64,000 bases of DNA from a phage, in the sequence record PX104378.1; one strand, given 5' to 3'. Position numbers and translations under genes: made by a program. Positions 9,871 through 31,745 of this stretch are shown here, piece after piece. Every line of letters begins with the position of its first letter. Positions within the stretch are counted from its first letter, which is position 1. The notes beneath the pieces were generated by a model. That model saw nothing but the letters and a program-made list of their open reading frames with translations, was not told the origin of the DNA and did not search any database.

Positions 9871-10239
9871 TCACTTAACAAAGATTTTCTTTAATGCTTT
9901 CAGGATCGTTGCTTCCGGCGCTTCTTCCGGTGGAGGAAGCAATTCTACCACTTCCTCTTCCAACTCGATATAGTCTACCAGATATTCTACATAGAATGCA
10001 AGTGCTTCCATGAAATTAGATGCTACATCCGATTCACCACAAGCTCCTACATGCATTGTATAAACATCACTGCGATCAAGTTTGTGGATGCTTCCCAGAT
10101 AGTTTCGGTTATACCAGACTTCCCACACTTTCAGCTTTCCGGTTTTGGTTGCTGTTTTATAATCGGTTTCGTAATGATGCAATTGACGTTGCAAATCATT
10201 GATAATAACACATTTTTCGTAATTGCTTTGAATTTCCAT
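9871..10239 (-). CDS. Hypothetical protein
   Basis: 122-aa ORF, acidic C-terminus; RBS GAGGATTA. Confidence 0.5.
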   Translation of the reverse strand: MEIQSNYEKCVIINDLQRQLHHYETDYKTATKTGKLKVWEVWYNRNYLGSIHKLDRSDVYTMHVGACGESDVASNFMEALAFYVEYLVDYIELEEEVVELLPPPEEAPEATILKALKKIFVK

Positions 10240-10249
10240 GATGTAATCC

Positions 10250-10441
10250 TCACTTATCGTTAAGAAGTTCTAAAACTTTCTGTCGTACTTTGTCAATATT
10301 AGTTGATTCAAAAACTGTACGGTATCCCCAGCGTTGACCGTATGAGCGCGAGCAATCCCCATATCCCCATTGTTCAACCTGATAGTATTCAAGGAATGGG
10401 TGTTGCCGAACTATGATACCATCACGGTTAAAAATTACCAT
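10250..10441 (-). CDS. Hypothetical protein
   Basis: 63-aa ORF; GAGGATTATATT-ATG initiation cassette immediately downstream of a TTGTTGACA box. Confidence 0.45.
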   Translation of the reverse strand: MVIFNRDGIIVRQHPFLEYYQVEQWGYGDCSRSYGQRWGYRTVFESTNIDKVRQKVLELLNDK

Positions 10442-10464
10442 AATATAATCCTCATGTCAACAAC

Positions 10465-10764
10465 TTATTTTCGGTTGTGGTCACGATATGTTTTAAAATA
10501 TCCCTCGTACCACGGTAAAACATCTGGATTTTTACCACTATACAGACCTTTAACCATCATGTCAATAAGACCGTCCGGTGTTTGATAATTACCAGCTTTT
10601 ATAAGCTCTCTGATTAAAATTTCCTTGTATATGTCTTTCGGATCTTCGTAATCAACTTGTATTGTGGTTGTTGTCCCGCTTAATTTGGTTTCTGGAGTAT
10701 CTTGCATCGCCTTCCACCAATCTTTTGTAATCTTCATGCTGTTGAATTTCATAATTATCTGCAC
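10465..10764 (-). CDS. Hypothetical protein
   Basis: 99-aa ORF; start uncertain. Confidence 0.4.
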   Translation of the reverse strand: MQIIMKFNSMKITKDWWKAMQDTPETKLSGTTTTIQVDYEDPKDIYKEILIRELIKAGNYQTPDGLIDMMVKGLYSGKNPDVLPWYEGYFKTYRDHNRK

Positions 10765-11522
10765 CCGTACTGGTCAACATAGGTTTTAGAGTGTCCTTGT
10801 TCGCGGACTTCTAAGCGAATGATATCGCTATCCTGTTCACGCCACACATAATACTTTTTATTTTCTTTCCAGCCGCTAAAAACGATCATTCCGTTGTCAT
10901 CAACTACTCGTTTTGTGTTTGCCTTATGAACATCATTATTGTCGATGTATGTAAAATGGATAATCTGACCATCTTTTACTTTCAGAGTCAATTCACCTGG
11001 ATTGTATTCTTTATAAAAAGGCTGTTCTTTCGGCTTAGTGTTTGCTCCGTCGATATTTTTCCATTTAAAGTGAGATTCACATTGCAAGGTAAACTCGCTG
11101 GTTTGTGGTTTCTTTTCTTTCTTCGGTTGCTCTACCACTTTTTCTTCCTGTTTCGGTTGTTCTTCTTCAACCTTCGCAGAAGTCTCTGAATCGCTTTCTG
11201 ACGCTGTTTCTTCTTTAGGTAATACATTCATCAAGTTTTGGATTTGAGCGTTATATACAGCCTCCAGTGGCTGAATCTGCCCGATATTGATCATTGTATC
11301 ACGAACGGTTTTATTCCAGTTGCGTTGCTCTTGTTTCAGAGACGGATCAATCTTAACAGCCTTAACATATACTTCATGGAGTTTAGAATCCAGTGCGGAG
11401 ATTGACTCATTAGCACAAATAAACTTCTCTGATTTGGTAGTGGCTTTAGCGCAATCGAAGGACGCAGCATTAGCACCGAATGCAGTAGCAGAAAGAACGA
11501 TAGCAGCGATAATGTTTTTCAT
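10755..11522 (-). CDS. Secreted protein with DUF1311 (LprI-like lysozyme-inhibitor) N-terminal domain
   Basis: Signal peptide MKNIIAAIVLSATAFGANA; motif C..A..T..E..IC...LD..L..Y...QRNW...RD typical of DUF1311; K/E-rich linker; GAGGAATATATT-ATG; promoter cassette upstream. Confidence 0.6.
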   Translation of the reverse strand: MKNIIAAIVLSATAFGANAASFDCAKATTKSEKFICANESISALDSKLHEVYVKAVKIDPSLKQEQRNWNKTVRDTMINIGQIQPLEAVYNAQIQNLMNVLPKEETASESDSETSAKVEEEQPKQEEKVVEQPKKEKKPQTSEFTLQCESHFKWKNIDGANTKPKEQPFYKEYNPGELTLKVKDGQIIHFTYIDNNDVHKANTKRVVDDNGMIVFSGWKENKKYYVWREQDSDIIRLEVREQGHSKTYVDQYGCR

Positions 11523-11556
11523 AATATATTCCTCAGTGTTTTGTCTTGATGTGAGT

Positions 11557-11585
11557 ATCTTACTACTCCCTTAATCCGGTGTCAA
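11557..11585 (-). promoter_or_regulatory. Early promoter cassette with spacer stem-loop (PeSL-like)
   Basis: Minus-strand TTGACA-17nt-TAAGAT; GGGAGTA..TACTCCC inverted repeat; upstream of ORF 10755..11522. Confidence 0.5.
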
Positions 11586-11592
11586 CTACTTT

Positions 11593-11748
11593 TTAAATTT
11601 CTTCTACAGTAAAGTCTTCAATGTTGTTGTGCTCGGCGAACGTTGCCAGACCAGCATTCCATGCATCATCCTCAGAGAAGAATACACCGTAACGTTCATA
11701 TCCCTTAGCGCCTTCAAATTTAACCAGTAATTTGTGAGTATGTTTCAT
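11593..11748 (-). CDS. Hypothetical small protein
   Basis: Track ORF 11593..11811 trimmed to the ATG preceded by AGGAGAATCAAA RBS; promoter cassette at ~11780-11808. Confidence 0.5.
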   Translation of the reverse strand: MKHTHKLLVKFEGAKGYERYGVFFSEDDAWNAGLATFAEHNNIEDFTVEEI

Positions 11749-11779
11749 TTTGATTCTCCTTCGTTGTCTTGATGAGTTC

Positions 11780-11808
11780 ATTGTAGGGGATCGCCGATCC
11801 CCTGTCAA
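11780..11808 (-). promoter_or_regulatory. Early promoter cassette with spacer stem-loop (PeSL-like)
   Basis: TTGACA-GGGGATCGGCGATCCCC-TACAAT; the 17-nt spacer is a near-perfect palindrome. Confidence 0.55.
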
Positions 11809-11818
11809 CAACTATTTT

Positions 11819-12031
11819 TTAATTTTTACCCGCTCGTGCATTAATACGCATTTTCTGAATAGCCATGATCTGGCTTACTGCTTCTTCTTTACGTTCTTGC
11901 GTGATAACGTGACCAGATTCCGCAAACTCTCCCGCAACTTCTTCTACGATCTCGCGAACTTGAGAACATCCAAAGATGCGGTTTCCTTCGTAGCTCATAA
12001 ATTCAGTCACTACTTGCTCAATAGATTTCAT
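11819..12031 (-). CDS. Hypothetical protein
   Basis: 70-aa ORF; RBS AGGAGAATCACATG; promoter cassette upstream. Confidence 0.5.
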   Translation of the reverse strand: MKSIEQVVTEFMSYEGNRIFGCSQVREIVEEVAGEFAESGHVITQERKEEAVSQIMAIQKMRINARAGKN

Positions 12032-12064
12032 GTGATTCTCCTTCTTTCGTTTCGGTATGGGAGT

Positions 12065-12093
12065 ATATTACTACTCCCGTTTCTTTACGTCAA
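12065..12093 (-). promoter_or_regulatory. Early promoter cassette with stem-loop (PeSL-like)
   Basis: TTGACG-17nt-TAATAT; GGGAGTA/TACTCCC inverted repeat flanking the -10. Confidence 0.5.
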
Positions 12094-12100
12094 CTGGTTT

Positions 12101-12343
12101 TTAGAAATTTTTCGCTTCTTCTTCGGTCATCATAACCGCGCATTCGTGCATAACTTTGAAAACCGGATCAATCATGTCAAATGCTTCACGGGACAGTTTA
12201 CGAGAAGCGATTTTGATTGCTTCTACGTCTTCTACTACAGGAACAAAAACAGTTTTCAGTTCGTCGAGGACGGCAGCTTCTTTTTCATTCAGGAAGATCC
12301 CAGCGTCGTACAGTGCAACTTCGATAACATTAACTTTAACCAT
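12101..12343 (-). CDS. Hypothetical protein
   Basis: Track ORF trimmed to the ATG preceded by GGAGGAAATAAAA; 80 aa. Confidence 0.5.
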   Translation of the reverse strand: MVKVNVIEVALYDAGIFLNEKEAAVLDELKTVFVPVVEDVEAIKIASRKLSREAFDMIDPVFKVMHECAVMMTEEEAKNF

Positions 12344-12377
12344 TTTTATTTCCTCCAGTTCGTTTCGGTATGGGAGT

Positions 12378-12406
12378 ATAATACTACCGATGACCTTTGG
12401 CGTCAA
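12378..12406 (-). promoter_or_regulatory. Early promoter cassette (PeSL-like)
   Basis: TTGACG-17nt-TATTAT; imperfect inverted repeat TCGGTA..TACCGA. Confidence 0.45.
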
Positions 12407-12608
12407 CTGCTTTTTTATTATTTTCGTGAAAATTTTTCGTCGCCTCATGTGCTTTTCGCTGGGCTTCTTGTTGTGCTTGCTGGCGTGCTGCCTCTTGCGA
12501 TGCCATAACGGAAGCATTTGCGGCAGTTACAGCCGCTACCATCGCTGCGGTATTGGCATTTACAGTACATGCGCTCGCCAACAAAGCAATTGCAATCATT
12601 TTCTTCAT
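12384..12608 (-). CDS. Small secreted protein / putative lipoprotein
   Basis: Signal peptide MKKMIAIALLASAC (lipobox-like ASAC), then Ala/Gln-rich helical region. Confidence 0.5.
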   Translation of the reverse strand: MKKMIAIALLASACTVNANTAAMVAAVTAANASVMASQEAARQQAQQEAQRKAHEATKNFHENNKKAVDAKGHR

Positions 12609-12775
12609 AATTTCCCCTTTAGGTTATCTTCGACCTTCATCCATTCCGCATATTCTTGCGCGGCTACTTTCGGAATTAGGCCGTCTTCGTACATTGCCTC
12701 AAGTAATTCTTCGTCGGTGGGCTTATACCCCAGATAAGCCGCAACCTGATTTTTCCAAATCTTATACCAGTTCAT
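12605..12775 (-). CDS. Hypothetical small protein
   Basis: Track ORF 12605..12844 trimmed to the ATG (MNWYKIW) preceded by GGTGA. Confidence 0.4.
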   Translation of the reverse strand: MNWYKIWKNQVAAYLGYKPTDEELLEAMYEDGLIPKVAAQEYAEWMKVEDNLKGKL

Positions 12776-12779
12776 ATTA

Positions 12780-13052
12780 TCACCAATCAAGAGCGCGTGT
12801 CTCTGCGTCTTCCCATGCTTGATCCATAACAGCCTTGAAAACATATTCTAAGGTATCATCTTTCGAGAATCCGAAGATCTTAGACGGAATATCTTCAATT
12901 GCTACTCCAGCAACTTCCGCATTACGTGCCTGGCAATAATGCAACTCTAAGTTATCGAGATAACGACCGCCTAATTTCTCCATATCGTCCCAGCATTTCC
13001 AGTAACCTACTTTATCGGCAATTGCTAACACTTTGCTGTTTTTGTTGCTCAT
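12780..13052 (-). CDS. Hypothetical protein
   Basis: Track ORF trimmed to the ATG preceded by AAGGAGAATCAAAG; conserved 5'UTR cassette upstream. Confidence 0.5.
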   Translation of the reverse strand: MSNKNSKVLAIADKVGYWKCWDDMEKLGGRYLDNLELHYCQARNAEVAGVAIEDIPSKIFGFSKDDTLEYVFKAVMDQAWEDAETRALDW

Positions 13053-13081
13053 CTTTGATTCTCCTTTTGTTTGGTATGTGT

Positions 13082-13112
13082 GTATTATGCAATGTTTGAT
13101 TATGGAAGTCAA
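13082..13112 (-). promoter_or_regulatory. Early promoter with conserved 5'UTR cassette
   Basis: TTGACT-~19nt-TAATAC followed by ACACACATACCAA..AGGAGAATCAAAG-ATG. Confidence 0.4.
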
Positions 13113-13120
13113 CAACTTTT

Positions 13121-13152
13121 CAAATAAAAAAGCCGACCACAAGGATCGGCTT
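13121..13152 (-). terminator. Rho-independent terminator after ORF 13162..13554
   Basis: Minus-strand AAGCCGATCC-ttgtgg-TCGGCTT followed by TTTTTATTT. Confidence 0.65.
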
Positions 13153-15476: not shown

Positions 15477-15770
15477 TTAACCGCCTTTAACCATTGATAC
15501 CGGAATTGTTTTCTGATTTGTGTATAACTGGCCTACTTCAATTTTTTCTTGAATCACCACGACGTTACAATATCCACTGTCTTTAAGTTTTCTGATAATG
15601 ACTCGCTTTTGTTCGTCGGTGATAGGATTGACTGTTCTCACCAATTCACCACAAATAATAGCACCATCTTTACAATTACCAGTAACTTTCATGCTACGAC
15701 CGTGAACAACAACCACGTCACCGTAAATCACATTTTCGTCGTCGTATTTGGTAATAATCGTGACCGTCAT
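15477..15770 (-). CDS. Hypothetical protein
   Basis: 97-aa ORF; RBS AGAGGGAATAACATT-ATG just downstream of a hairpin. Confidence 0.5.
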   Translation of the reverse strand: MTVTIITKYDDENVIYGDVVVVHGRSMKVTGNCKDGAIICGELVRTVNPITDEQKRVIIRKLKDSGYCNVVVIQEKIEVGQLYTNQKTIPVSMVKGG

Positions 15771-15780
15771 AATGTTATTC

Positions 15781-15809
15781 CCTCTAAGAAAGGCCGCGCA
15801 AAGCGGCCT
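15781..15809 (-). terminator. Hairpin (possible terminator/attenuator) upstream of ORF 15477..15770 RBS
   Basis: Minus-strand AGGCCGC-tttgc-GCGGCCT followed by TTCTT; weak U-run. Confidence 0.4.
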
Positions 15810-15816
15810 ATGTTTA

Positions 15817-16143
15817 TTATTGTTCTACAGTATAGCCGTTGTTTTCAAGCCATGCAATAACAATCTTTTCGCCAATTTCATCGAGCATTTCATCAGCGCC
15901 ATATTCTTTAATGAAAGTCGATGGATCATTATTGCTTACTACGTGCTGGATCACAACATGTTCAGGAATTGCGTCTAGCAGTTCACTATGATCATACTCA
16001 TTAACGATATCTTCAACACTAACATTATTAACCAAATCAACATCATCCATAGTCACAGTAACGCGACCGGACGGACGCAATGAATATTGGCTACTTTCAA
16101 CTTCAACATGTGCACTTTCGCAAGTAACTTTAATATCAATCAT
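15817..16143 (-). CDS. Hypothetical acidic protein
   Basis: 108-aa ORF directly downstream of rIIB; RBS GAGGAATTAATT-ATG. Confidence 0.5.
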   Translation of the reverse strand: MIDIKVTCESAHVEVESSQYSLRPSGRVTVTMDDVDLVNNVSVEDIVNEYDHSELLDAIPEHVVIQHVVSNNDPSTFIKEYGADEMLDEIGEKIVIAWLENNGYTVEQ

Positions 16144-17355: not shown

Positions 17356-19464
17356 TTAAAATTTAACATTCTTAACCAGTTTCATAAAGTCTTGTGCGCG
17401 TTTGTCGTTATGCAGAATACGATACCAGTTATCTACAATATCATACAGTAACGGGCTATTCTCTTTAAACTTCGCACAAACTGCTTTAATTCGTTCGTTT
17501 GCTGCCGTGAATTTTTCATCACAAATCTTTTTAGTTTCTTCGTCCATAATCCAACGAGTACGAAGGAGTAACTTGGAAACCTCTTTATTATAATGACGAC
17601 CGTACAGTCTGTCAATAAATTCTGGAATACAGCGTTCTAATTCATCGTCATGAAACAACATAGTGATCACACCCAGATATTCGCCATACCCCAGATGATT
17701 GGTCTTAACCTTCTTAGCCAGACCAGCCAGCTTACCGCGAACAAATTCTAGCGCACATTCCAATTGTTCGTCAACGAGATATTTTTGTGTCTCATTACGG
17801 GTAATAATATACTTTGTTACCCCGAAGTAGTCAAGCGCTGTGTGTAATGTATTTTCACTATAGATCGATTGACGGCTACGGCTTTCGAATGCATCACCCA
17901 CGCGGAACATGTGCAAGCCTGATAACTCGCGAATCTCTGCCGCTTTCATGTGATGGCTGGTTTTATGCCAACTGTCACCAATCTTTTCCATGATATACAC
18001 GTTAGGCAGCTTAGGAGTAGCTTCACGCTGTACACGTTCGGCCTTCTCCGGCTTAACTGCTTTAGCACGCAGATCATCGGCCTCGGACACTTTAATCACG
18101 GTCATTTCCGATTCATCATAATACTGTTTGATGTACTCGAAAGTCTCCATATGTTTTTCGTTTCTCTGACGGAACACCAGTACCTTTTTATTGATGCCGT
18201 ATTCTTGGACCATGCCGTTAAGAGTCAGTGCACGTAGTTTCGGTTTATCGGTATCATCAATTACACACAGAATATCTTCTTTATGCATCCATACAAAATG
18301 CGTAATGTTGTATTGACTGCTAACGAAAGCAGGGCGCAATTTACTGATTGTGTGACGAGTACGATACAGAGTATACACCTGTCCTTCTACGTCATTTGGC
18401 GAATCTTTACCCGCATTCACAAACTTATTATAGATTGCTACCGGATCATCCCACTGTCCGATCTTACCCATTTTGCTAATAATATTGCGTTGAGTCGATG
18501 AATACTCGCTCATAAATTGCGCAAGTTTACGCTCTGTTTCAATGCTGGCGATCTTTTCTTTAACCTTTTCCAACATCATTTCATTGATTTCTGCAATGCG
18601 TTTTTCGATGTTCGCTTTAGTCTCAATTGACAAGTGAACTTCTTCACGCGATGGCATCAGGTCCAGATCACCTAACTCGAAATTGATGTAAATGGTCTGG
18701 TGCTGGCGGTTTACAGCTTCTAACCATGTTCCGCGAACATATTCATACGGGATCGGATACTGGATCTTACCCATGATTGCATATACCACATAGGAATCGT
18801 TATCACGTCCATTACACACATAATAATTATCAAAGCTAGGGAAATAATTAATTTCGATGGCATTGATATTAGGTTTGTGTTCCCCAAAATGACGCAGTAC
18901 AAATTGTGCTTCTCGATGCCATGTCTGAATATCTTTTTCCTTCACCGGAATAGTGATTTTCAGACCGTTGTCTTCATAGGTCGGTTCGTCGAAAATCTGC
19001 ACCATTTTCGGCATAGAGTTTTGCACGAATGCAGTAAAGCCATAAGCGCGACCATTGTAGTAGTTTACGATTGTAAAGGTGTCGGTGTAGCTATAAGCAG
19101 ATTTCGCACCTAAACCAAAAGATCCGATATAATCATTAGTCTGGTCTTTGGTTGATTCAAAGTAAACAGTAAACAGTTGTTCTAATTCTTTCTTAGACGG
19201 AATACCCGTACCATAATCACGCACAGAGAAATACGGTTCGATTGCAGTCGGTAAATGAATATCAAACGGACGATCTAAGGTTCCGGCTTCTTTGTGAGTG
19301 TCGGTAGCATTACATGAATACTCACGGACGCAAGCACGCTCACAATATTGATAAGTGTTCTTAGAAAGCACCATAAAAGCCTTGCTACTTGCTTTCAGAG
19401 AAAAATCAACCGCACCGCTCAGGTCACTACCAAATACTTCTTCATTATCAATATGCATTTTCAT
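17356..19464 (-). CDS. rIIA: rIIA protein
   Basis: 702 aa (T4 725 aa); GHKL-ATPase-like N-terminal blocks (YIGSFGLGAKSAYSYTDTFTIVNYY), ..DYFP.FD.YY.., PSREE; GAGGATTATATT-ATG. Confidence 0.9.
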   Translation of the reverse strand: MKMHIDNEEVFGSDLSGAVDFSLKASSKAFMVLSKNTYQYCERACVREYSCNATDTHKEAGTLDRPFDIHLPTAIEPYFSVRDYGTGIPSKKELEQLFTVYFESTKDQTNDYIGSFGLGAKSAYSYTDTFTIVNYYNGRAYGFTAFVQNSMPKMVQIFDEPTYEDNGLKITIPVKEKDIQTWHREAQFVLRHFGEHKPNINAIEINYFPSFDNYYVCNGRDNDSYVVYAIMGKIQYPIPYEYVRGTWLEAVNRQHQTIYINFELGDLDLMPSREEVHLSIETKANIEKRIAEINEMMLEKVKEKIASIETERKLAQFMSEYSSTQRNIISKMGKIGQWDDPVAIYNKFVNAGKDSPNDVEGQVYTLYRTRHTISKLRPAFVSSQYNITHFVWMHKEDILCVIDDTDKPKLRALTLNGMVQEYGINKKVLVFRQRNEKHMETFEYIKQYYDESEMTVIKVSEADDLRAKAVKPEKAERVQREATPKLPNVYIMEKIGDSWHKTSHHMKAAEIRELSGLHMFRVGDAFESRSRQSIYSENTLHTALDYFGVTKYIITRNETQKYLVDEQLECALEFVRGKLAGLAKKVKTNHLGYGEYLGVITMLFHDDELERCIPEFIDRLYGRHYNKEVSKLLLRTRWIMDEETKKICDEKFTAANERIKAVCAKFKENSPLLYDIVDNWYRILHNDKRAQDFMKLVKNVKF

Positions 19465-19478
19465 AATATAATCCTCAC

Positions 19479-19746: not shown

Positions 19747-19941
19747 TTACACATTTTCAATCACCCATTGCAGATGGGCTTCTGCGTCAACCAGTTCAGC
19801 GCGGCTTTTCTCTAAGCACTTGCTGTATTCTTTACGTTCCCAATCAGCAATTTCGTTTTTCAGGACTTCTTCATAGTAAGCAATTACGCCTTTCAGATCG
19901 GAAACTCTACGGCTTGCCAGTTCGATGTAATGGTTACGCAT
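19747..19941 (-). CDS. Hypothetical protein
   Basis: 64-aa ORF; RBS AGGAGAATCAAA-ATG. Confidence 0.5.
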   Translation of the reverse strand: MRNHYIELASRRVSDLKGVIAYYEEVLKNEIADWERKEYSKCLEKSRAELVDAEAHLQWVIENV

Positions 19942-20128
19942 TTTGATTCTCCTTTGTTACTAGATAACGAATTTGGTCTTGCATTGCGATCAGTTCCCAG
20001 CGTGCTACTTTCATCATGGAAACTGACTCTTTGAACATAATATTAGCTTTTTCCTTTTCCCCTGTCAAGTAGATTTCTGAAATTTTTTCACAAAATTTTT
20101 GAGTTTCTTCATTCTTAAACGGTTTCAT
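19934..20128 (-). CDS. Hypothetical protein
   Basis: Track ORF 19934..20182 trimmed to the ATG (MKPFKNE...); promoter cassette at ~20159-20187. Confidence 0.45.
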   Translation of the reverse strand: MKPFKNEETQKFCEKISEIYLTGEKEKANIMFKESVSMMKVARWELIAMQDQIRYLVTKENQNA

Positions 20129-20158
20129 ATAAGTCAACCTTTTGTTTTCGATGGGGAT

Positions 20159-20187
20159 ATTATGATATATCCCCGATCTCATGTCAA
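20159..20187 (-). promoter_or_regulatory. Early promoter cassette with stem-loop (PeSL-like)
   Basis: TTGACA-17nt-CATAAT; GGGGATAT..ATATCCCC inverted repeat with -10 in loop. Confidence 0.45.
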
Positions 20188-20194
20188 CAACTTT

Positions 20195-20494
20195 TTAATC
20201 TTTTTTCAGTGCATCCATTACTCGCGCTGCGATCAGTTCTCGTAAGCACTGATAACCATGATATTTGATGGCAATGTCACGCAGATCATTAACCAGTTCC
20301 CGTACTTCATGGTCTTTCAAATCGTCTCTGTATTTCGATTTAACCGTGTCTTTAGGTGGATTGCGGATAACCTGAAAACCTTGTTCTGCAATCACTGCGG
20401 CTTCGCGCTGGCGTTCATGTTGTACTGTATTTTTGATCAGGTCTGCTTCCATGAACTTTGCCATACTCATCATCATGTTATTCTTTTTGCTCAT
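20195..20494 (-). CDS. Hypothetical protein
   Basis: Track ORF trimmed to the ATG after GAGGATTTAACG (MSKKNNMMM...); promoter cassette overlapping the topo II stop. Confidence 0.5.
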   Translation of the reverse strand: MSKKNNMMMSMAKFMEADLIKNTVQHERQREAAVIAEQGFQVIRNPPKDTVKSKYRDDLKDHEVRELVNDLRDIAIKYHGYQCLRELIAARVMDALKKD

Positions 20495-20528
20495 CGTTAA
20501 ATCCTCATAAAAGAAAAGGGAGACTCCC

Positions 20529-20556
20529 ATTATAGAGAATCTCCCTTGTATGTCAA
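20529..20556 (-). promoter_or_regulatory. Early promoter cassette (PeSL-like) overlapping the topo II stop
   Basis: TTGACA-16nt-TATAAT then GGGAG-T-CTCCC hairpin. Confidence 0.5.
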
Positions 20557-20559
20557 GTG

Positions 20560-22383
20560 TTATGATTGCATCCAAATTTTGCGTTGATCTGCATCTTCAC
20601 TATAGAGCAAATCGAATAGCTCTTTATAGTTTTCCGGCAACGTGATGATCTCCATTACAGGATCGTTGATCACGCGATGATAGTCTGATTCTGTGAGCGA
20701 TGCTAAACCTTTGATATATCGAATGTTGTAACCTTTGATATTATCGCGATCGTTCTCAAAATCTTCTAGGTCATAATACCATCGAACATCATCACCTTTC
20801 TTTGGTTCCGCAATGATAATAGGTGTTTTGATAAACCGGATTCGACCATCTTCGAACAATTCAGGCCAACGTGCAAAGAAAGAGATCAGACTAGGCTTAA
20901 TAGACCCGATCCCGTCAGTATCAGCGTCTGTCATAATCGCAATATTTTTGTATTGCATAACTTCCAATGCATCAACACCAAATTGCAGACCAGTGATCGC
21001 CATGATGTTAAAAATTTCGGCGTTCTTAACGATCTTTGCCTCCGGTTGTTCCCACGTTGTAAGAGTTTTGCCTCGCAACGGGAAACCGCCATGTAAATCT
21101 TGATCACGTACAGAGATCAGATAGTTGATCGCGGAATCACCTTCCGTCAAAAACAGGGTAGTTTCTGCGTCAGTTCCAATAAGGTTAGCTTTAACGTGTT
21201 TTGCTACCTTAGCCCGTTTCGCTGCCTTTGCTGCCTTAGTCGCTGCCGCTTTATCTGCTGCCTCTTTGCGTGCCAGGACTACAGCAATAATAGGCATGAT
21301 AATGTTTTCTTTCTTCGCAATGACTTTAGCCAGTTTTTTAAAATCCAGATCAATGTGTCGCTTGATATCACCAGTTGGATTAGTCAAGCGTTCTTTTGTC
21401 TGTGAATCAAAACGAAGATTAGGCAATTCACGAACAATAAGAATACAGGTCAATCCAGACTTAACCGCAGCTTTAGTAACATCAACCTTATATTCTTTCT
21501 TGATTCGTTTTACAATCTCTTCACAAAGATCATCTGTCACGTAGTCTACGTGCGTTCCCCCGTTTTTGGTAAACAGACCATTAGCAAAGGATACTGATTT
21601 AAAACCTTCTCCCTCGACCGCAGGAACTAGGGCAAGTGAAAAGTTTTTATCTTCAATGACAAACGGATCATCATTGTATAGTTTAGCATAATCCTTGAAC
21701 TTACTAACAATACGTTTACCATTAAACTTAAACGTGATCTTAGGAAAGATTACGCTCAATGATTGCAGACGATCATGAACAATATCTAAAACAGAGTTGT
21801 CCATCATATAACCTTCGAAGTGGTCGAAGTCTGGGCAAAATGTAACCTTCGTTCCCTTCAATTTTGATGGTTTCGACGACCATGTGATATTTTCAGCACC
21901 GTTTGTGCATTGAACGGTCATTTCTGTTTCACCGTCACAGGTCACACCAGTAAACCAATCGCTAAAGAAGTTTGACAACGACGATCCTACGCCGTTCATC
22001 CCTTGCGTTAGTCGATTTGTATCATCAAAGTTAGACCCTGCTTTTGTTCGTGTCCATGCGGCTACAGGTTGCGGAATCTGCGTACCCTCTGGGGTAGTAA
22101 CCATATGTTGAGGAATACCGCGACCATTGTCTGTTACCGTAACAATATTGTTTTGGATATCGACGCTAATCACATTGGCAAATTCAAAGTTAGTGCGGAT
22201 CGCCTCGTCTACAGAGTTGTCGATGATCTCATCAATGATTTTAACCAGTCCAGGAACGTATGAAATTTTTGTCCATTTACCGAACAGGAAACGTTGATGT
22301 TCTTCGTAAGTTGTTGATCCTATATACATTCCTGCACGCTTAAGGACATGTTCACGATCAGATAAAATGCGGAACTCACTCAT
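20560..22383 (-). CDS. 39: DNA topoisomerase II large subunit (GyrB-like; T4 gp39 and gp60 equivalents as one ORF)
   Basis: 607-aa uninterrupted ORF with GyrB ATPase and TOPRIM features (VDNSVDEA, GKGIP, LTEGDSA, IMTDADTDG). Confidence 0.9.
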   Translation of the reverse strand: MSEFRILSDREHVLKRAGMYIGSTTYEEHQRFLFGKWTKISYVPGLVKIIDEIIDNSVDEAIRTNFEFANVISVDIQNNIVTVTDNGRGIPQHMVTTPEGTQIPQPVAAWTRTKAGSNFDDTNRLTQGMNGVGSSLSNFFSDWFTGVTCDGETEMTVQCTNGAENITWSSKPSKLKGTKVTFCPDFDHFEGYMMDNSVLDIVHDRLQSLSVIFPKITFKFNGKRIVSKFKDYAKLYNDDPFVIEDKNFSLALVPAVEGEGFKSVSFANGLFTKNGGTHVDYVTDDLCEEIVKRIKKEYKVDVTKAAVKSGLTCILIVRELPNLRFDSQTKERLTNPTGDIKRHIDLDFKKLAKVIAKKENIIMPIIAVVLARKEAADKAAATKAAKAAKRAKVAKHVKANLIGTDAETTLFLTEGDSAINYLISVRDQDLHGGFPLRGKTLTTWEQPEAKIVKNAEIFNIMAITGLQFGVDALEVMQYKNIAIMTDADTDGIGSIKPSLISFFARWPELFEDGRIRFIKTPIIIAEPKKGDDVRWYYDLEDFENDRDNIKGYNIRYIKGLASLTESDYHRVINDPVMEIITLPENYKELFDLLYSEDADQRKIWMQS

Positions 22384-22486
22384 TATTAAACCTCTTCATA
22401 ACATAACCATAACTTACTGCAACCGCCACAAAGACGGCTGCAACAATCATATTAAAAATTGAGTGATTGTCAAGTATATGACTCAT
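22376..22486 (-). CDS. Putative 36-aa hydrophobic peptide
   Basis: Not in track. ATG overlaps the Zn-ribbon gene stop (TCATGA); its stop overlaps the topo II start; MSHILDNHSIFNMIVAAVFVAVAVSYGYVMKRFNNE. No clear SD. Confidence 0.3.
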   Translation of the reverse strand: MSHILDNHSIFNMIVAAVFVAVAVSYGYVMKRFNNE

Positions 22487-23571: not shown

Positions 23572-23739
23572 TCAAAAACCTCGCTTAGTGAAATGTTCGA
23601 TCATTTTATTGATACATGCAGCTTCACTATCGCCGGACACGTTCCAGCCGTACAGACCCCATCTAAAGCACATGGTAACAGTTCCATTGTGACGGCTTAC
23701 CGTCACATCATTAAATTCTGGGATACTTCGCATAATCAT
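23572..23739 (-). CDS. Hypothetical small protein
   Basis: Not in track (<60 aa); ATG preceded by GAGGAAATTATT; 55 aa; stop 1 nt before next ATG. Confidence 0.4.
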   Translation of the reverse strand: MIMRSIPEFNDVTVSRHNGTVTMCFRWGLYGWNVSGDSEAACINKMIEHFTKRGF

Positions 23740-23749
23740 AATAATTTCC

Positions 23750-25141
23750 TCAAATATAGTCTACTCGATACCGCGCACGGGTAACACCCACATATAATAA
23801 CTGCATTGCCAATTCAAAGTCAACATTGTCTGTACACATGCAAGGAGTATACAGGAACACGCGGTCTACGCTGATCCCTTGTGACTTATGAATGGTGCAA
23901 GCTGGTAATGCTTTTACATTCAAGAACATACGTTTCATCGTCCAGAAGGAATCCCAATCTGGTTTAAATTTTGGATTCTCTTTCTTCATTTCGCGATATT
24001 GTCCGGCGACCGTATTCAGATAGATAGAGAAAATGTTCTTCTGACGTTGTTCTGTCAGAATGTTGATTTCTACTAAATCCGGTTTATCTGTAGTGATTCC
24101 GACTGCATCTAAACCGACTTTCTGATTTAGGATTTCTTTGTCTTCGTCATCATCGACGCTTTCCACTTTCAGAGTATAGCCTAAAACTGGTTGCGGATCT
24201 ACCCCCGTGCAACGTAATGTAAATTCACGCGGGATGACCTCTTTAACTCGGATCATCTCACCATTGTTAAAAATAACATTGGGAATCTTCTTCCCGCGTT
24301 CATCTCGCATATATTCGATCAACGGTTCCTGAGTAACCAGAATTTCATCTACAATCACTGGTTCATCGGTGTTATAAACGCGCTTACGTACAATTTCATT
24401 TAGTTTTTCGACGCTCTTGTTAGTGTAAGCCAGAATACGGTTTTCTAGAAGGTCTTCCGGCGTTTTAACGGTTTCGAAATAATGCTTCATAAACTCCGGC
24501 AGAGTTGAGCTATGGAATACACCCTCGTTACCGCACTGCTTTTCGAATACCCATTTACCGTTACGGACAGCGGTCGCCACATCAATTATTGGCGCATTAG
24601 ATCGTTTAATCTCTGTAAGTTCTACATTCTGGAATCTTTCATCTGTGAAGAAAGGAGAGATCGACGTTGCACCGCTCGGATCAACTGGTCGTAACTGGTA
24701 CAGATCACCCACGGCAATAATAACAATTCGACCGTTGATACTCTTCATGAGAATATCAAATAGTTTCTTATCGACCATACTCGCTTCATCAACAATGATG
24801 ATCTGAACATCATCTAGTTTAGGAGTATCCTTTTGCTCAAATACTTGAGTATCTTCATAGTTGGTCGGGTTTAGTCGCAGTAGTGCATGTAAAGTAAATG
24901 CTTGACGACCTACCGCCTTACTCAAAACTTTTTTAGCCTGGTGGGTAGGCGTTGCCAAAACCACACCAGTTACACCACGGCGGACCATTTCCTGGACAAT
25001 GAATTTCATCATTGCGGTTTTACCAGTACCCGCCGCACCACGGACAGTTGTATGCTTCTTTTGTTCAATGCGTTTCATTAGAACATCAAAAGCATGTTTT
25101 TGTCCGTCTGTCAACATATCGAAAGTTAATACTCTGCTCAT
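23750..25141 (-). CDS. dda: Dda DNA helicase (SF1)
   Basis: Walker A GAAGTGKT, TPTHQAKK, IIVDEASM, EIKRSNAPIIDVATAVRNGKW, C-terminal LLYVGVTRARYRVDYI, all matching T4 Dda. Confidence 0.9.
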   Translation of the reverse strand: MSRVLTFDMLTDGQKHAFDVLMKRIEQKKHTTVRGAAGTGKTAMMKFIVQEMVRRGVTGVVLATPTHQAKKVLSKAVGRQAFTLHALLRLNPTNYEDTQVFEQKDTPKLDDVQIIIVDEASMVDKKLFDILMKSINGRIVIIAVGDLYQLRPVDPSGATSISPFFTDERFQNVELTEIKRSNAPIIDVATAVRNGKWVFEKQCGNEGVFHSSTLPEFMKHYFETVKTPEDLLENRILAYTNKSVEKLNEIVRKRVYNTDEPVIVDEILVTQEPLIEYMRDERGKKIPNVIFNNGEMIRVKEVIPREFTLRCTGVDPQPVLGYTLKVESVDDDEDKEILNQKVGLDAVGITTDKPDLVEINILTEQRQKNIFSIYLNTVAGQYREMKKENPKFKPDWDSFWTMKRMFLNVKALPACTIHKSQGISVDRVFLYTPCMCTDNVDFELAMQLLYVGVTRARYRVDYI

Positions 25142-25455: not shown

Positions 25456-26210
25456 TATAAACCTACCTTCGCTTTCATCAATTCAATCCACGACGCATCA
25501 ATCGGAAGCCCGTATTTCACGCGTTCTTTTTGTGCTGGCGTTAAGTTCTCATACTTAGAAAGAGATTCAATCAAAACGCTGGTATATTTTAGCACGATTT
25601 CGGTATTGTTTGCAATAGCCTTGAGTTTTTCCTCTTTCTTGTTGATTTCGCTAAGGGCTTGCTTGAGATCTGCAATTTTCTGATAACGTTCTTCCATACG
25701 GAAGAGAGTATTTTTAATCGCTCGCTCGGCTGCCTCTGCTTTCTCCGGTTCGTTGTGCTTTTTGTGGCGCTCGATTGCTAATTTCTTTTCTTCGATTGCC
25801 ATTTCCTGATTTTTGATGCGATTCTCGTTAAGTTCGATCCACTCGATGTACTTTGCACGTAGGGCGATCTCATCATCAGAAAGTTTACCGTTAGTTCCTA
25901 GTTCCTGGATCTCTTTAAGAGATTCGATAGTGTGATTGCCACGGAAAGAATTGTATTTCAGTTTAACCGGAATTACATTGCCATCAACATATCCCAGATT
26001 GCAATCAATGCGCTCTAAGGAGAGTCCGTCATCACCTTCACCGAAAGCCTCACCTGAATATGCGCAATGAGTCTGACGGTAAATGTTACGCACAGTGACT
26101 AAGCTCATAGAGAAGTCTTTGTTGCGACGTGAAGCGCCAGCCATGATAGAGTTCAGACGGAAAACAACCAGCGCCAATTCTTCGTTAGATTTAAAAGCAA
26201 ACAGTTTCAT
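25455..26210 (-). CDS. Hypothetical protein with C-terminal coiled coil (position of T4 srd)
   Basis: 251 aa; AGGAGAATCAATT-ATG with conserved 5'UTR cassette and promoter upstream. Assignment by position only. Confidence 0.5.
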   Translation of the reverse strand: MKLFAFKSNEELALVVFRLNSIMAGASRRNKDFSMSLVTVRNIYRQTHCAYSGEAFGEGDDGLSLERIDCNLGYVDGNVIPVKLKYNSFRGNHTIESLKEIQELGTNGKLSDDEIALRAKYIEWIELNENRIKNQEMAIEEKKLAIERHKKHNEPEKAEAAERAIKNTLFRMEERYQKIADLKQALSEINKKEEKLKAIANNTEIVLKYTSVLIESLSKYENLTPAQKERVKYGLPIDASWIELMKAKVGL

Positions 26211-26237
26211 AATTGATTCTCCTTAGTTGGTATGTGT

Positions 26238-26269
26238 GTATTATTGTCTATCTGGTTTGTGCTGTCAAC
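26238..26269 (-). promoter_or_regulatory. Early promoter with conserved 5'UTR cassette
   Basis: TTGACA-~20nt-TAATAC ACACATACCAACTAAGGAGAATCAATT-ATG. Confidence 0.4.
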
Positions 26270-26271
26270 AC

Positions 26272-26775
26272 TTAAATTAAAGAAAATTTGTAAATCTCTA
26301 TCAGGTCGCCGTTACATGCGTAAACTTCCTCGATCTCATCAAGGATCATGGTCGTCCCTGTCTTGTATATGCACTCGCGCTCATCCGCCAACATAGCATA
26401 CAAAGACAGTCGAGTAGTCGGATTGTCATACTCTTTAGACACCACTCGATCAATAGCATGTTCGTAATAATTCATGCAAGGCTTGGTAGGTTTTATTGCA
26501 ATAATCTTTCCTGTTGCATAAACATCGGTTGCAAAGTCCTCTGCTGTTGATTGCAGTGGCGTAAAGCTCATAGGACGCTCTACAACGAAAGAATCGCCTA
26601 CAATTAAGGTATCCAGCTTACGGCCTTCTCTTTTGCTCACACCGCGATACAAGGCTTCATGATGCACTAACCGTTCAGTCTTTTCAATCAATCCATTAAG
26701 GATCGACATATCGATATTTTCTTTAGAGTTCATCACTTCATCAATGATGTTAAGTTCTTCTGGTGTAAATTGCAT
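26272..26775 (-). CDS. Putative mono-ADP-ribosyltransferase (ModA/ModB-like)
   Basis: Candidate R-S-ExE triad (LYRGV ... SFTP ... ADERE); position matches T4 modA/modB; start at ATG (MQFTPEEL) after GGAGG. Confidence 0.5.
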   Translation of the reverse strand: MQFTPEELNIIDEVMNSKENIDMSILNGLIEKTERLVHHEALYRGVSKREGRKLDTLIVGDSFVVERPMSFTPLQSTAEDFATDVYATGKIIAIKPTKPCMNYYEHAIDRVVSKEYDNPTTRLSLYAMLADERECIYKTGTTMILDEIEEVYACNGDLIEIYKFSLI

Positions 26776-26807
26776 AATAAAAAGCCTCCAATCTTTCGAC
26801 GGGAGGC
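26776..26807 (-). terminator. Hairpin after gene 56 whose 3' arm contains the SD of the ART-like gene
   Basis: Minus-strand GCCTCC-cgtcgaaagatt-GGAGGC then TTTTTATT-ATG. Confidence 0.45.
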
Positions 26808-26843
26808 ATAATAAAACCATTATAGAGTAGTGTCAACTAATTT

Positions 26844-27368
26844 TTAGTAGCCGCGTTCTTGACGGGCGAAGTTTTCAGCATTTTTCAGATAGTACAGCTT
26901 GAAGATATCCTTAGCGGTTAAACCTAAGCCCAGCATTTTAATCAGCACAAAATGCCAGATATCGATCAATTCCATCGCAATTTCGGTTTTATCGTCATCT
27001 GACAGATCAGCAAATTTACGCGCTCGTGCTTCGCCGTGGTTCTTCTTCCACACTTTAGTAATTGCGCTTGCATCTTTGCCATTTGACATGCCACCCAGGG
27101 CAACATAAAGTTCTCGTGTCTCGTCGTCGATTGCGTCATCCCATAGCTTCATCCAATCAAGGATCTCCCCGCAAGTTTCCAGCTTATCAGGATGCGGCAC
27201 CCACTCAAATTTATCAGCTAGTGCGACCTGTAAGCCTTTTTGCATATCTAACATTACTTGCAGCGGATCTTTGCCGCTAGTGATTGCCTCGGAATACGCA
27301 ATACCAGCTTTAGACATAGTTTCGTCGCTAACCAGACCAGCACAAGAATTAAATTCTGACATATTCAC
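26844..27368 (-). CDS. 56: dCTP pyrophosphatase gp56 (MazG-like)
   Basis: 174 aa; KDPLQVMLDMQ, HPDKLET, ELIDIWHFVL, IFKLYYLKNAENFARQERGY closely match T4 gp56. Confidence 0.9.
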   Translation of the reverse strand: MNMSEFNSCAGLVSDETMSKAGIAYSEAITSGKDPLQVMLDMQKGLQVALADKFEWVPHPDKLETCGEILDWMKLWDDAIDDETRELYVALGGMSNGKDASAITKVWKKNHGEARARKFADLSDDDKTEIAMELIDIWHFVLIKMLGLGLTAKDIFKLYYLKNAENFARQERGY

Positions 27369-31431: not shown

Positions 31432-31745
31432 ACATAGCCCCCAACTACACGCATAACAAAGGTCTTGAGTTTATACCAGAAAGTTTCTTTTTTCAACTTT
31501 TCTTCTGCTTCTTTGATCTGCGCTGTTAACGCCTTAATGACGTGAGGATATACCACATCACGATCTGACGGCGTGGAGTAGTCGACCACAATACCTTTAG
31601 TGTCTGGATCGTATTCAACATTATGAATATAGACAATATGATGCTCTCCCTCTTCATCAACAATTATCAGTTCCTGAATAACTGTCTTCATTGCTTCTTG
31701 AATCAAGCCGTGTGCTTCTTCTAAACTTGTTGGTTTCTTATCCAT
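31428..31745 (-). CDS. 40: Hypothetical protein (position of T4 gene 40)
   Basis: 105 aa, hydrophobic C-terminus, between uvsX and 41 as T4 gene 40; positional assignment only. Confidence 0.4.
   Translation of the reverse strand: MDKKPTSLEEAHGLIQEAMKTVIQELIIVDEEGEHHIVYIHNVEYDPDTKGIVVDYSTPSDRDVVYPHVIKALTAQIKEAEEKLKKETFWYKLKTFVMRVVGGYV

Follow-up and report, generated by a model that had tools for sequence, protein, structure and literature searches.

Repeated early promoter-leader cassettes in an RB49-like coliphage: very probable PeSLs that appear to serve as crossover linkers

INTRODUCTION

Promoter-early stem-loops (PeSLs) were defined in phages RB49 and Phi1 (Arbiol et al., 2010, PMC2839356). 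As published, a PeSL combines an AT-rich tract with sigma70 -35 and -10 elements and a stem-loop, which can take any of five positions, and its 3' end carries a ribosome-binding site and ATG. Its conservation spans about 100 bp, and each genome has 51-52 cassettes, most of them preceding orphan genes in variable regions, with PeSLs on both sides of gene 43 (PMC2839356). Crossovers were mapped to two intervals, one from the -10 to the ATG and one from the ribosome-binding site to the -10, and mini-circles with crossovers inside PeSLs were published; promoter and terminator activity in vivo and the mini-circles are experimental in RB49 and phi1 only (PMC2839356). The point of this paper and of the PeSL paper that followed in 2014 (Comeau et al., 2014, PMC4122927) is that such cassettes explain the gain and loss of small early genes in T4-type phages without wrecking transcription units.

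RESULTS

Cassettes in the window

The window, that is, the whole 64-kb stretch of phage DNA that was analysed, belongs to an RB49-like coliphage (Krischvirus), with about 96% identity to RB49, GEC-3S and kaaroe and 94-97% identity to Krischvirus genomes, RB49 and Phi1 among them. It contains 21 cassettes with a common layout (Table 1): an AT-rich tract, TTGACA, a 16-17 bp spacer, a -10 hexamer, an aCnCnCAT start region, an A/C-rich leader, a ribosome-binding site and ATG, in that order. The promoter is near-consensus sigma70 (gTTGACA, 16-17 bp spacer, TAtAAT), with at most 3 mismatches of 12 in all 21, and the leader, typically A-rich and G-poor, gives a -10-to-ATG distance of 25-44 nt in every cassette. 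The AT-rich tract is UP-like (consensus AaaaA..tGTTGACa), and over positions -50 to -31, counted from the end of the -10, its pairwise identity was 0.33-0.40 in both 10-nt bins compared to a background of 0.26. Mean pairwise identity, again counted from the -10, exceeded background from about -50 onwards and was back at background by +12 of the coding sequence. The original prediction had held that identity extends beyond the Shine-Dalgarno core, and it does, taking in the AT-rich tract about 50 nt upstream of the -10, the start region and the leader up to the ATG.

In an unbiased repeat search, the cassettes made up most of the top direct-repeat families and were the dominant dispersed repeats of the window. 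A generic promoter scan found no excess (16 matches vs 13.5 in shuffles) because its threshold was lax; only the top matches coincided with cassettes. The leaders do not belong to any described RNA element, as no Rfam family passed its gathering threshold when the whole window was scanned. Among seven proteins linked to motif A cassettes (motif A is described below), a Pfam scan placed one in DUF7170, gave one a sub-threshold match only and assigned the other five to no family.

A cassette usually has a G+C-rich stem-loop; a stable one was found at a published PeSL position in 16 of 21 cassettes (three upstream of the -35, four in the spacer, seven over the -10 and two after it), and with the simple stem finder used, the stem-loop did not beat shuffles in the other five. 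Fifteen of the 21 lie within 9-13.2 kb and 50.6-64 kb, the regions of mosaic coverage in relatives, and RB49 and Phi1 carry the same cassettes at orthologous places. We therefore hold it very probable that the repeated leaders are PeSL cassettes of an RB49-like T4-type phage, recombination role included. The repetition of leaders is real, but it is already known, as PeSLs have been published.

Table 1. Cassettes, start motifs and related features of the window. PeSL denotes the very probable assignment given in the text.
Feature	Position	Strand	Remarks
Focal intrinsic-terminator hairpin	13130-13152	minus	AAGCCGATCCTTGTGGTCGGCTT, then T-run; 9-bp stem; PeSL class 'upstream of -35'; GEC-3S annotates a terminator at the orthologous place
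Focal sigma70-type early promoter	13084-13112	minus	TTGACT (13112-13107), 17-bp spacer, CATAAT (13089-13084); orthologous promoter annotated in GEC-3S
Focal start region, leader and start site	13050-13083	minus	ACACACATACCAAACAAAAGGAGAATCAAAG-ATG; motif A; before 90-aa orphan gene
PeSL	63826-63935	minus	-35 at 63898, ATG 63828; long leader, motif A
PeSL and upstream terminator	62663-62770	minus	-35 at 62722, ATG 62665; short leader, motif A; junction of gp38-like gene, present or absent among relatives
PeSL	60359-60467	minus	-35 at 60432, ATG 60361; spacer stem-loop GGGGATC..GATCCCC; long leader, motif A
PeSL	59692-59792	minus	-35 at 59757, ATG 59694; stem-loop over -10; motif B
PeSL	56470-56567	minus	-35 at 56532, ATG 56472; stem-loop GGGAGTAG..CTCCC over -10; motif A; recombined with 55622 cassette in KFS-EC
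PeSL	55560-55657	minus	-35 at 55622, ATG 55562; stem-loop class as 56472 cassette; motif B
PeSL	54327-54422	minus	-35 at 54387, ATG 54329; stem-loop over -10; motif B
PeSL and upstream terminator	51825-51935	minus	-35 at 51884, ATG 51827
PeSL	50665-50773	minus	-35 at 50738, ATG 50667; spacer stem-loop; long-leader variant, motif A; before 50-aa DUF7170 gene
PeSL	42633-42724	minus	-35 at 42689, ATG 42635; spacer stem-loop CGGGGAGAAATCCCCG
Promoter cassette upstream of DNA polymerase gene 43	35809-35907	minus	-35 at 35872, ATG 35811
PeSL downstream of gene 43	33069-33178	minus	-35 at 33143, ATG 33071; 12-bp stem-loop after -10
PeSL	26773-26871	minus	-35 at 26836, ATG 26775; stem-loop after -10
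Promoter-leader cassette	26208-26303	minus	-35 at 26268, ATG 26210; short leader, motif A; without convincing stem-loop
PeSL	20492-20591	minus	-35 at 20556, ATG 20494; 13-bp stem-loop over -10
PeSL	20126-20222	minus	-35 at 20187, ATG 20128; stem-loop over -10
Stand-alone motif A	19939-19954	minus	AAGGAGAATCAAAATG; without promoter, inside 3' end of preceding gene
Stand-alone motif B	19462-19476	minus	At rIIA start
Promoter-leader cassette	12341-12441	minus	-35 at 12406, ATG 12343; degenerate stem-loop; within two-gene segment missing in RB49, Phi1, JSE, AV108 and pEJ01
PeSL	12029-12128	minus	-35 at 12093, ATG 12031; stem-loop over -10; motif A
PeSL	11746-11843	minus	-35 at 11808, ATG 11748; spacer stem-loop; motif A; gene missing in GEC-3S, kaaroe, KMB43, AV108 and pEJ01
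PeSL	11520-11620	minus	-35 at 11585, ATG 11522; decayed stem-loop over -10; motif B variant GAGGAATATATT
Truncated cassette	10439-10475	minus	AT-rich tract and GTTGTTGACA joined directly to tGAGGATTATATTATG; without -10 and leader; conserved in relatives
Further stand-alone motif B	31743-31757, 56183-56197, 58565-58579, 61263-61277, 62362-62376, 47211-47225, 10237-10251		

Start motifs and leader subfamilies

Two stereotyped start regions recur, motif A (AAGGAGAATCAAA-ATG) and motif B (GAGGATTATATT-ATG). The motif A sequence GGAGAATCA occurs in 10 copies (0.42 in shuffles), all on the minus strand and each just upstream of a start codon (63828, 62665, 60361, 56472, 50667, 26210, 19941, 13052, 12031 and 11748), and nine of the ten stand behind a promoter of the form TTGAC(A/T/G)-N16-17-TAnnnT. 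The positions that the original prediction gave for this context are start codons of minus-strand genes. Its near-identical leaders before unrelated small genes resolved into two subfamilies: a short-leader group (13052, 26210 and 62665) with CATACCAA(C/A).AAGGAGAATCAA in common, and a long-leader group (63828, 60361 and 50667), about 12 nt longer, with CATC.A.ACGA.A.ACA.CTTT..AGGAGAATCAAA. The second recurring context that had been proposed was also recovered, as motif B: GAGGATTATATTATG gives 15 matches when up to 2 mismatches are allowed, where 0.24 would be expected, and its 12-mer is exact at 8 gene starts compared to 0.05 expected from independent columns. The positions 53835, 54384, 55619, 59386 and 61008, listed earlier for this context, are the low-coordinate ends of motif B genes.

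Leader identity was 0.74-0.94 in 10 of 11 within-subfamily pairs and 0.59 for the pair 11748/11522, against a background of 0.51 with a 99th percentile of 0.67. The predicted check was whether identity decays at the ATG, and there it drops to background, with coding positions +4 to +63 at 0.48-0.62 within subfamilies. The downstream genes were confirmed as unrelated by all-against-all blastp, barring the weak paralogues 55562, 56185 and 56472. That the shared leaders are remnants of gene-plus-leader duplications is thus barely credible: those three paralogues are neighbours of about 30% identity, as duplication would leave, but the other cassette-linked proteins gave no blastp matches and nucleotide identity is at background from the ATG on. 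For the motif A groups, paralogy was rejected on the missing blastp matches and the end of identity at the ATG.

Functional convergence alone is a further explanation, in which UP element, -35, -10, start region, unstructured leader, and ribosome-binding site with spacer were each selected for strong expression, with neither recombination nor shared descent. It would fit the slow evolution of the start region, as in orthologues pooled over all cassettes, the 15 nt before the ATG (-15 to -1) carried 0.007 substitutions per site compared to 0.063 at third codon positions, a 9-fold difference, and it would fit both the recurrence of motif B at promoter-less genes and an unrelated T1-like phage in which the -10-to-ATG stretch is 36/42 identical. 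Convergence does not account for exact common runs of up to 26 nt (26210 vs 62665) or for a subfamily structure far above that of independent columns, with 33 identical 12-mer pairs against 0.08 expected; the published mini-circle crossovers inside PeSLs oppose it as well (PMC2839356), and chimeric cassettes exactly at indel junctions in relatives, described below, already contradict it. We consider it very improbable. The same constraint on the 15 nt before the ATG means that identity beyond what a Shine-Dalgarno sequence needs does not by itself imply mobility. When the ACACACAT/ACACCCAT polymorphism was compared across genomes by eye in two cassettes, no consistent pattern was seen, and gene conversion and purifying selection both fit this comparison as the source of the low substitution rate.

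Motif B without promoters

Operon-internal copies of motif B consist of the 15-nt start region alone, with no promoter and no similarity further upstream, and are not PeSLs. A rather likely reading, held somewhat above even, is that motif B ([T]GAGGATTATATT-ATG) is a preferred compact gene junction, in which an upstream TGA or TAA overlaps or abuts the ribosome-binding site, and which is kept by selection on translation and is not mobile. The eight exact copies, the lack of similarity upstream of the 15-mer at operon-internal sites and the near invariance of motif B in orthologues all agree with this, and at 62376 and 58579 the T preceding motif B completes the TGA stop of the upstream gene. 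One junction cluster, at 61265, coincides with a motif B site and would speak for mobility, but tandem paralogues explain that cluster better. The motif might also be an operator of the RegA translational repressor: its spacer, ATTATATT, is an AU-rich 8-mer, and by synteny, a 120-aa ORF at 35894-36256 between putative gene 62 and gene 43 occupies the position of regA in T4. Against this part of the reading, the only feature of motif B itself that would suggest RegA is AU-richness beside the AUG.

Hybrid cassettes at sites of gene gain and loss

Twenty loci were compared in 15 relatives. At least five independent gene indel or replacement events with hybrid cassettes were found among them. The cassettes are mosaic, in that one leader occurs with different promoter cores and one promoter and stem-loop class occurs with motif A or motif B. 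In relatives, the leader and ribosome-binding site next to the gene were retained and the promoter half was swapped, for gene 62665 in FL15, MIZ4 and KMB43 and for gene 13052 in FL04, KMB43 and pEJ01.

The focal cassette (13050-13152), whose minus strand reads CATAAT-ACACACATACCAAACAAAAGGAGAATCAAAG-ATG at 13050-13089, is a chimera of two cassettes present in FL04, KMB43 and pEJ01. In those phages, the two cassettes flank an extra 68-aa gene, and the window has the single chimeric cassette there. ECD7 lacks the segment corresponding to 12044-13055; the crossover fell within the shared AAGGAGAATCA, and the partner of the focal cassette was the 12031 cassette. Likewise, KFS-EC lacks 55623-56487, where the 56532 and 55622 cassettes have been fused into one hybrid. 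For the gp38-like gene (62767-63552), the junction maps to the start region of the 62722 cassette, and gene 11748 was lost when sequence was exchanged within the AT-rich tract and the -35. Crossovers reach into the ribosome-binding motif itself.

Six of 11 breakpoints in one variable region fell in cassettes (10.5% coverage, P = 4e-4), as did 3 of 13 in the other (6.5% coverage, P = 0.05), an enrichment weaker than the P value implies because indel breakpoints must be intergenic and the longer intergenic stretches consist largely of cassettes. Stronger evidence comes from the hybrid cassettes. Since the leader stays with the gene and the promoter half is exchanged, the cassette is a crossover site, or linker, and not cargo; judged from these alignments, the cassettes act as crossover linkers and not as intact mobile units. 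The comparison with related phages that the original prediction had called for therefore placed hybrid cassettes at junctions of gene gain and loss, the flagged site included. Its proposal that the regulatory region moves as a unit stood as to the tie with gene mobility, shown by the hybrids at indel junctions, but failed as to intact movement, as the cassettes are mosaic.

Cassettes play no part in several other differences in gene content. Homing endonucleases were inserted at 52920 and 57330, tandem paralogues underwent unequal exchange at 61265-61481, and an allele was replaced at 10757-11108.

Motif A as a candidate RegB/S1 site

Motif A may carry two signals at once, with GGAGAAUCAAA serving both as Shine-Dalgarno sequence and as the 11-nt target of the phage RegB endoribonuclease with ribosomal protein S1. 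This is compatible with the PeSL reading; motif A genes would be silenced within minutes and motif B genes, which have GAGG and no GGAG, would be spared. Such a dual signal would account for the conservation of the spacer besides the core. The T4 site is GGAGRAYARAA, in rare cases with GGAU for GGAG, and T4 itself has GGAGAAUAAAA (Durand et al., 2006, PMC1702504). Motif A, with GGAG as the ribosome-binding site, then an A-rich stretch and a pyrimidine at position 7, matches 10 of the 11 positions. In RB49, regB is annotated at 51556-51978, beyond the stretch that is homologous to the window, its own start region is GGAUAAUAAAA, and motif A again stands behind early promoters in the RB49 early region that was examined; according to a review, the Shine-Dalgarno sequences of tested regB genes in T4-related phages are cleaved in vivo. 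GGAG ribosome-binding sites were present in 13/21 promoter-proximal genes compared to 17/79 others (P = 8e-4), and GGAGAATCA is invariant in 10/10 copies and unchanged in the aligned cassettes of relatives. The PeSL paper makes no mention of RegB (PMC2839356).

The mismatch falls at an important place, as AAUCAAA has C at position 8, and A at positions 6, 8 and 11 is most conserved in the A-rich context of T4; motif A thus departs from the RegB 3' context RAYARAA (A favoured at 6, 8, 10 and 11). The strict GGAGRAYARAA had 0 matches in the 64-kb window, and GGAKRAYARAA (GGAG/U at position 4) with one mismatch was not enriched, with 19 matches, seven of them motif A, against 22. The predicted unpaired probability from -14 to +3 was 0.42-0.78 and did not differ from shuffles. 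The T1-like phage Tls has GGAGAATCAA at two early gene starts. RegB is not known from Tls or from T1-like phages as a group, so motif A may be no more than a strong start region. Altogether, a RegB/S1 role for motif A is a tentative and rather doubtful proposal. If true, it would divide early genes into a short-lived and a persistent class, a lead absent from the PeSL papers.

DISCUSSION

On the PeSL reading, and by analogy with the RB49/phi1 work, host RNA polymerase would start transcription at the cassette promoters immediately upon infection, giving expression of early genes that are small and for the most part orphans, and the stem-loops would insulate adjoining units. As the cassettes are the only sizeable dispersed repeats of the variable regions, phage homologous recombination crosses over within them; the junctions in relatives place these crossovers in the AT-rich tract with the -35, at the start of transcription and inside the ribosome-binding motif. 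The genes between cassettes are thereby deleted, inserted or reshuffled, leaving chimeric cassettes such as that at 13050-13152. Start motifs A and B would also be the family's preferred ribosome-binding contexts under strong constraint, which would explain why motif B, and once motif A, occurs without a promoter.

We also considered a portable early-expression module common to Krischvirus myoviruses and T1-like Drexlerviridae. The -10-to-ATG half (CAT start region, A/C-rich leader and GGAGAATCAA start site) would form this module and act as a linker for the exchange of small early genes across families, and motif A might in addition be a RegB/S1 site separating quickly silenced (A) from persistent (B) genes. 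TLS and other T1-like phages have 21-nt intergenic repeats, aaATAGCACnnnTTGnTAAAA, about 76 nt upstream of start codons, with a function stated as unknown (PMC11447400). These repeats resemble the Krischvirus cassettes in being dispersed, co-oriented and upstream of early genes, and in Tls they are followed by a Krischvirus-like CATAAT-ACA..CATC.AAC...GGAGAAT. The T1-like upstream element differs, as it has no TTGACA at 17 bp and no common stem-loop class and belongs to another virus family. The cassette-linked DUF7170 gene has a homologue in Tls (62% identical) that lacks the upstream sequence of the cassette, and there is therefore no direct evidence of gene and cassette moving together between families. 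We judge the shared module unlikely. If it is true, it would offer a starting point for explaining the 21-nt repeats of TLS and T1, and the near-identical -10-to-ATG stretch in T1-like phages is itself a lead absent from the PeSL papers.

Among described systems, morons (Hendrix et al., 2000) are similar in that the inserted gene carries its own promoter and terminator, but they are not thought to move via regulatory sequences, whereas here the regulatory sequence is the homology used. The linker sequences of Botstein and Campbell are likewise short conserved sequences between genes that guide module exchange. The T-even internal-protein locus elements cited by Arbiol et al. have a like function as linkers at variable genes; with T4-type early promoters and weaker AT-rich stems, they are analogues and not homologues (PMC2839356). 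The PeSL-like promoter-terminator motifs of T4/PST and KVP40/nt-1 (Comeau et al., 2014, PMC4122927) also combine early promoter and stem-loop in linkers on either side of variable genes and mediate modular exchange. In relation to the T4 RegB/S1 sites (Durand et al., 2006, PMC1702504), motif A would be a predicted site with C and not A at position 8. The closest match is with the PeSLs of RB49/phi1 (Arbiol et al., 2010, Genome Biol Evol 2:140, PMC2839356), which share the genus, orthologous positions, anatomy, the link to orphan-gene indels and the -10/ATG crossover zones, and from which the cassettes of the window show no essential difference. Beyond that paper, the window adds the leader subfamilies, two start motifs that also occur without promoters, orthologue substitution rates, and independent junction examples from 15 newer relatives sequenced later.

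Repeated start regions and the cassette catalogue

Krischvirus genomes (RB49, Phi1, JSE, GEC-3S, kaaroe and about 55 others) showed 94-97% identity to the window, in which nearly all genes from about 8.9 kb on are carried on the minus strand. The coordinates in the original prediction were minus-strand start codons and, for its second motif, low-coordinate gene ends. The focal site before gene 13052 (13050-13152, minus strand) contained, in order, a terminator hairpin, an AT-rich tract, GTTGACT, 17 bp, CATAAT, ACACACATACCAAACAAAAGGAGAATCAAAG and ATG; at the orthologous place, GEC-3S is annotated with a promoter and a terminator.

Near-identical leaders were reused across genes, as had been predicted. 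The GGAG-type start region (motif A, GGAGAATCA) occurred 10 times in the window (0.42 times in shuffles), with every copy on the minus strand and ahead of a start codon, and a sigma70-type promoter preceded nine of the 10 copies. The predicted second initiation context, the GAGG-type motif B (GAGGATTATATTATG), was also recovered, with 15 copies at ≤2 mismatches in the window against 0.24 expected. Among 100 gene starts, 33 pairs shared an identical 12-mer at -12 to -1 (0.08 expected with columns shuffled), and the 12-mer GAGGATTATATT was found eight times (0.05 expected by the same shuffling). In a gene-blind repeat search of the window, most of the top-ranking families of direct repeats were these cassettes.

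Scanning the window for TTGACA-N16-18-TATAAT with a gene start no more than 65 nt beyond it yielded 21 clear cassettes and one truncated cassette, which was kept in relatives. At the truncated-cassette spot, Phi1 (about 2290-2400 of the fetched locus) carried a 27-bp tandem triplication, AAGTACAACCGAAAATAAGTTGTTGAC. The extra promoter-like sites in the table, outside the 21 counted, may be more promoter-early stem-loop units (PeSLs), in the class whose stem-loop lies downstream of the -10. Three of them (31745, 37810 and 15770) had a G+C-rich hairpin after the -10 and lay before genes that include the putative genes 44 and 39.

Coordinates of additional cassettes, promoter-like sites and features compared with phage Tls
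Feature	Coordinates	Strand	Description
Truncated cassette	10439-10475	-	GTTGTTGACA joined directly to tGAGGATTATATTATG; no -10, no leader
Extra promoter-like sites	31745-31832, 37810-37898, 22383-22473	-	-10 to ATG 48-62 nt
Extra promoter-like sites	23739-23823, 44664-44749, 15770-15848	-	-10 to ATG 48-62 nt
DUF7170 protein, 50 aa	50515-50667	-	Tls gp86, 62% identity, E = 3e-19
59694 protein	59386-59694	-	Weak likeness to Tls gp85, E = 4e-5
HNH endonuclease	43731-44285	-	Resembles Tls EndZ, E = 1e-14
Tls early cassettes	NC_009540, 40000-49902	-	Gene starts at locus 8846, 8121, 7169, 5755, 5083

When all 21 cassettes were anchored at the -10, mean pairwise identity was at background (0.24-0.28) beyond -50, 0.33-0.58 from the AT-rich tract through the promoter, save for the variable spacer bin (0.31), and 0.45 over the first 10 transcribed-side positions (consensus ac.C.CATc.aaA). 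Anchored at the ATG, the last two 6-nt bins before it gave 0.50 and 0.43, falling to 0.28 by +12. Within leader subfamilies, gapped leader identity was 0.74-0.94 in 10 of 11 pairs (background 0.51, 99th percentile 0.67), and the coding sequence of the same pairs from +4 to +63 was at background (0.48-0.62). The downstream proteins were unrelated, bar three weak paralogues, and most of those scanned against Pfam had no family. The predicted identity beyond the Shine-Dalgarno core was thereby confirmed for promoter-linked cassettes, running from the AT-rich tract to the ATG and decaying there; for motif B at operon-internal genes, likeness was confined to the 15-mer, spacer included.

The cassette interval from -15 to -1 showed 0.007 differences per site in 100 orthologue comparisons, compared to 0.063 at third codon positions of the same genes and 0.024 in start regions of non-cassette genes; the start-region spacer is therefore constrained, or else homogenised by gene conversion.

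Exchange at cassettes in related phages

Homology breaks were mapped against relatives in the holin-to-gene-52 region (n = 11) and the nrdG-to-ORF081 region (n = 9). Phages FL04, KMB43 and pEJ01 carried an extra 68-aa gene between two cassettes where the window has one, the focal cassette, whose promoter half resembled their upstream cassette and whose leader (CATACCAAACAAAAGGAGAATCAAAGATG) resembled the downstream one; the junction fell exactly within the flagged interval. ECD7 lacked window 12044-13055, with the crossover within AAGGAGAATCA, common to the cassettes with -35 at 13112 and 12093, and KFS-EC lacked 55623-56487 and had the 56532 and 55622 cassettes fused into one hybrid. FL15, MIZ4, G5211 and KMB43 had no gp38-like gene (62767-63552), and the junction fell where the 62722 cassette has its start region; in these four phages, gene 62665 stood under another promoter core joined to the same leader from CATACCAAC on. 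Five relatives had lost gene 11748 through an exchange that fell in the -35 and the AT-rich tract. Cassettes held six of 11 breakpoints in one region (10.5% coverage, P = 4e-4) and three of 13 in the other (6.5% coverage, P = 0.05), both counts being confounded because gene indels must end between genes.

The gp38 tail-fibre adhesin gene (minus strand; Pfam GP38, 2.8e-70) lies in the early variable region with a terminator on one side and a PeSL on the other, a long way from the tail-fibre genes, which stand at the window start.

The remaining differences from relatives had other causes: homing endonucleases, allelic replacement, and tandem paralogues that exchanged unequally. Homing-endonuclease insertions were present in relatives at window points 52920 and 57330 (JSE, within nrdD; GEC-3S and KMB43, between nrdC and dam), and the window phage had neither. 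The tandem paralogues at 61265-61008 and 61481-61284 (minus strand) shared 53% protein and about 71% DNA identity, and JSE, FL15 and G5211 had a single gene in place of the pair, which points to unequal exchange or recent duplication with cassettes uninvolved.

The cassettes had been predicted to move as a unit. The hybrids at gene gain and loss junctions agreed with movement, but the cassettes were mosaic and the promoter half was exchanged. The long leader was paired with a plain spacer (63828) or a GGGGATC spacer stem-loop (60361, 50667), and the GGGAGTAG stem-loop over the -10 occurred with motif A (56472, 12031) or motif B (55562, 54329, 11522). Across relatives, the gene-proximal half stayed with its gene and the promoter half differed. 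Homologous exchange inside a linker leaves patterns of this kind, and transposition of a unit would not. In the 60361 cassette of G5211, 15 nt (ATCAAAACGAAACAC) between two ACACAC copies were gone, making the long leader short, which suggests how the two leader subfamilies relate.

Comparison with known systems

Motif A might, with fairly low probability, serve as a RegB/S1 target in early start regions: GGAGAAUCAAA agrees at 10 of 11 positions with the T4 target GGAGRAYARAA (Durand et al., 2006, PMC1702504). RB49 encodes regB, the start of which itself carries a T4-like site (GGAUAAUAAAA), and promoter-proximal genes were enriched in GGAG sites (P = 8e-4). However, position 8 of motif A is C, where T4 sites strongly favour A, the strict pattern had zero matches in the window, and motif A is also used by the T1-like phage Tls. 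The T1-like group is not known to have RegB.

The 42-nt focal leader had 6-11 matches per Krischvirus genome and also matched T1-like siphoviruses; in Tls, the -10-to-ATG stretch CATAATACACACATCAACCAATCAGGAGAATCAACGATG shared 36 of 42 nt with this leader (E = 1e-3). Repeated early cassettes are also a feature of Tls itself, where a 21-nt repeat precedes CATAAT-ACA..CATC.AAC...GGAGAAT..ATG. This repeat, aaATAGCACnnnTTGnTAAAA, was published with its function stated as unknown (PMC11447400), and the arrangement suggests that it belongs to early promoter cassettes. Several small early proteins of the window resembled those of Tls (table), and the upstream regions of the DUF7170 gene showed no likeness between Tls and the window. 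That both groups converged on a strong start region and leader for early genes is no less probable than transfer. The T1-like resemblance and the RegB reading are offered as leads.

PeSLs were defined in RB49 and phi1 as units conserved over ~100 bp, with an AT-rich tract, consensus sigma70 boxes, a stem-loop at one of five positions and a 3' ribosome-binding site with ATG; each genome has 51-52 of them, most standing before orphan genes in variable regions and some on either side of gene 43 (Arbiol et al., 2010, PMC2839356). The window cassettes agree with this anatomy point for point: a stable stem-loop was found at a published position in 16 of 21, gene 43 was bracketed by cassettes 35872 and 33143, and RB49 and Phi1 had the same cassettes at orthologous positions. 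Rfam returned no match in the window. Crossovers within the leader are not new, because those of mini-circles had been mapped between the -10 and ATG, and between the ribosome-binding site and -10 (Arbiol et al., 2010, PMC2839356). The original observation is real and statistically strong, and its interpretation was right in spirit. The window repeats are the PeSL system already on record, found here in the same genus from which it was first described.
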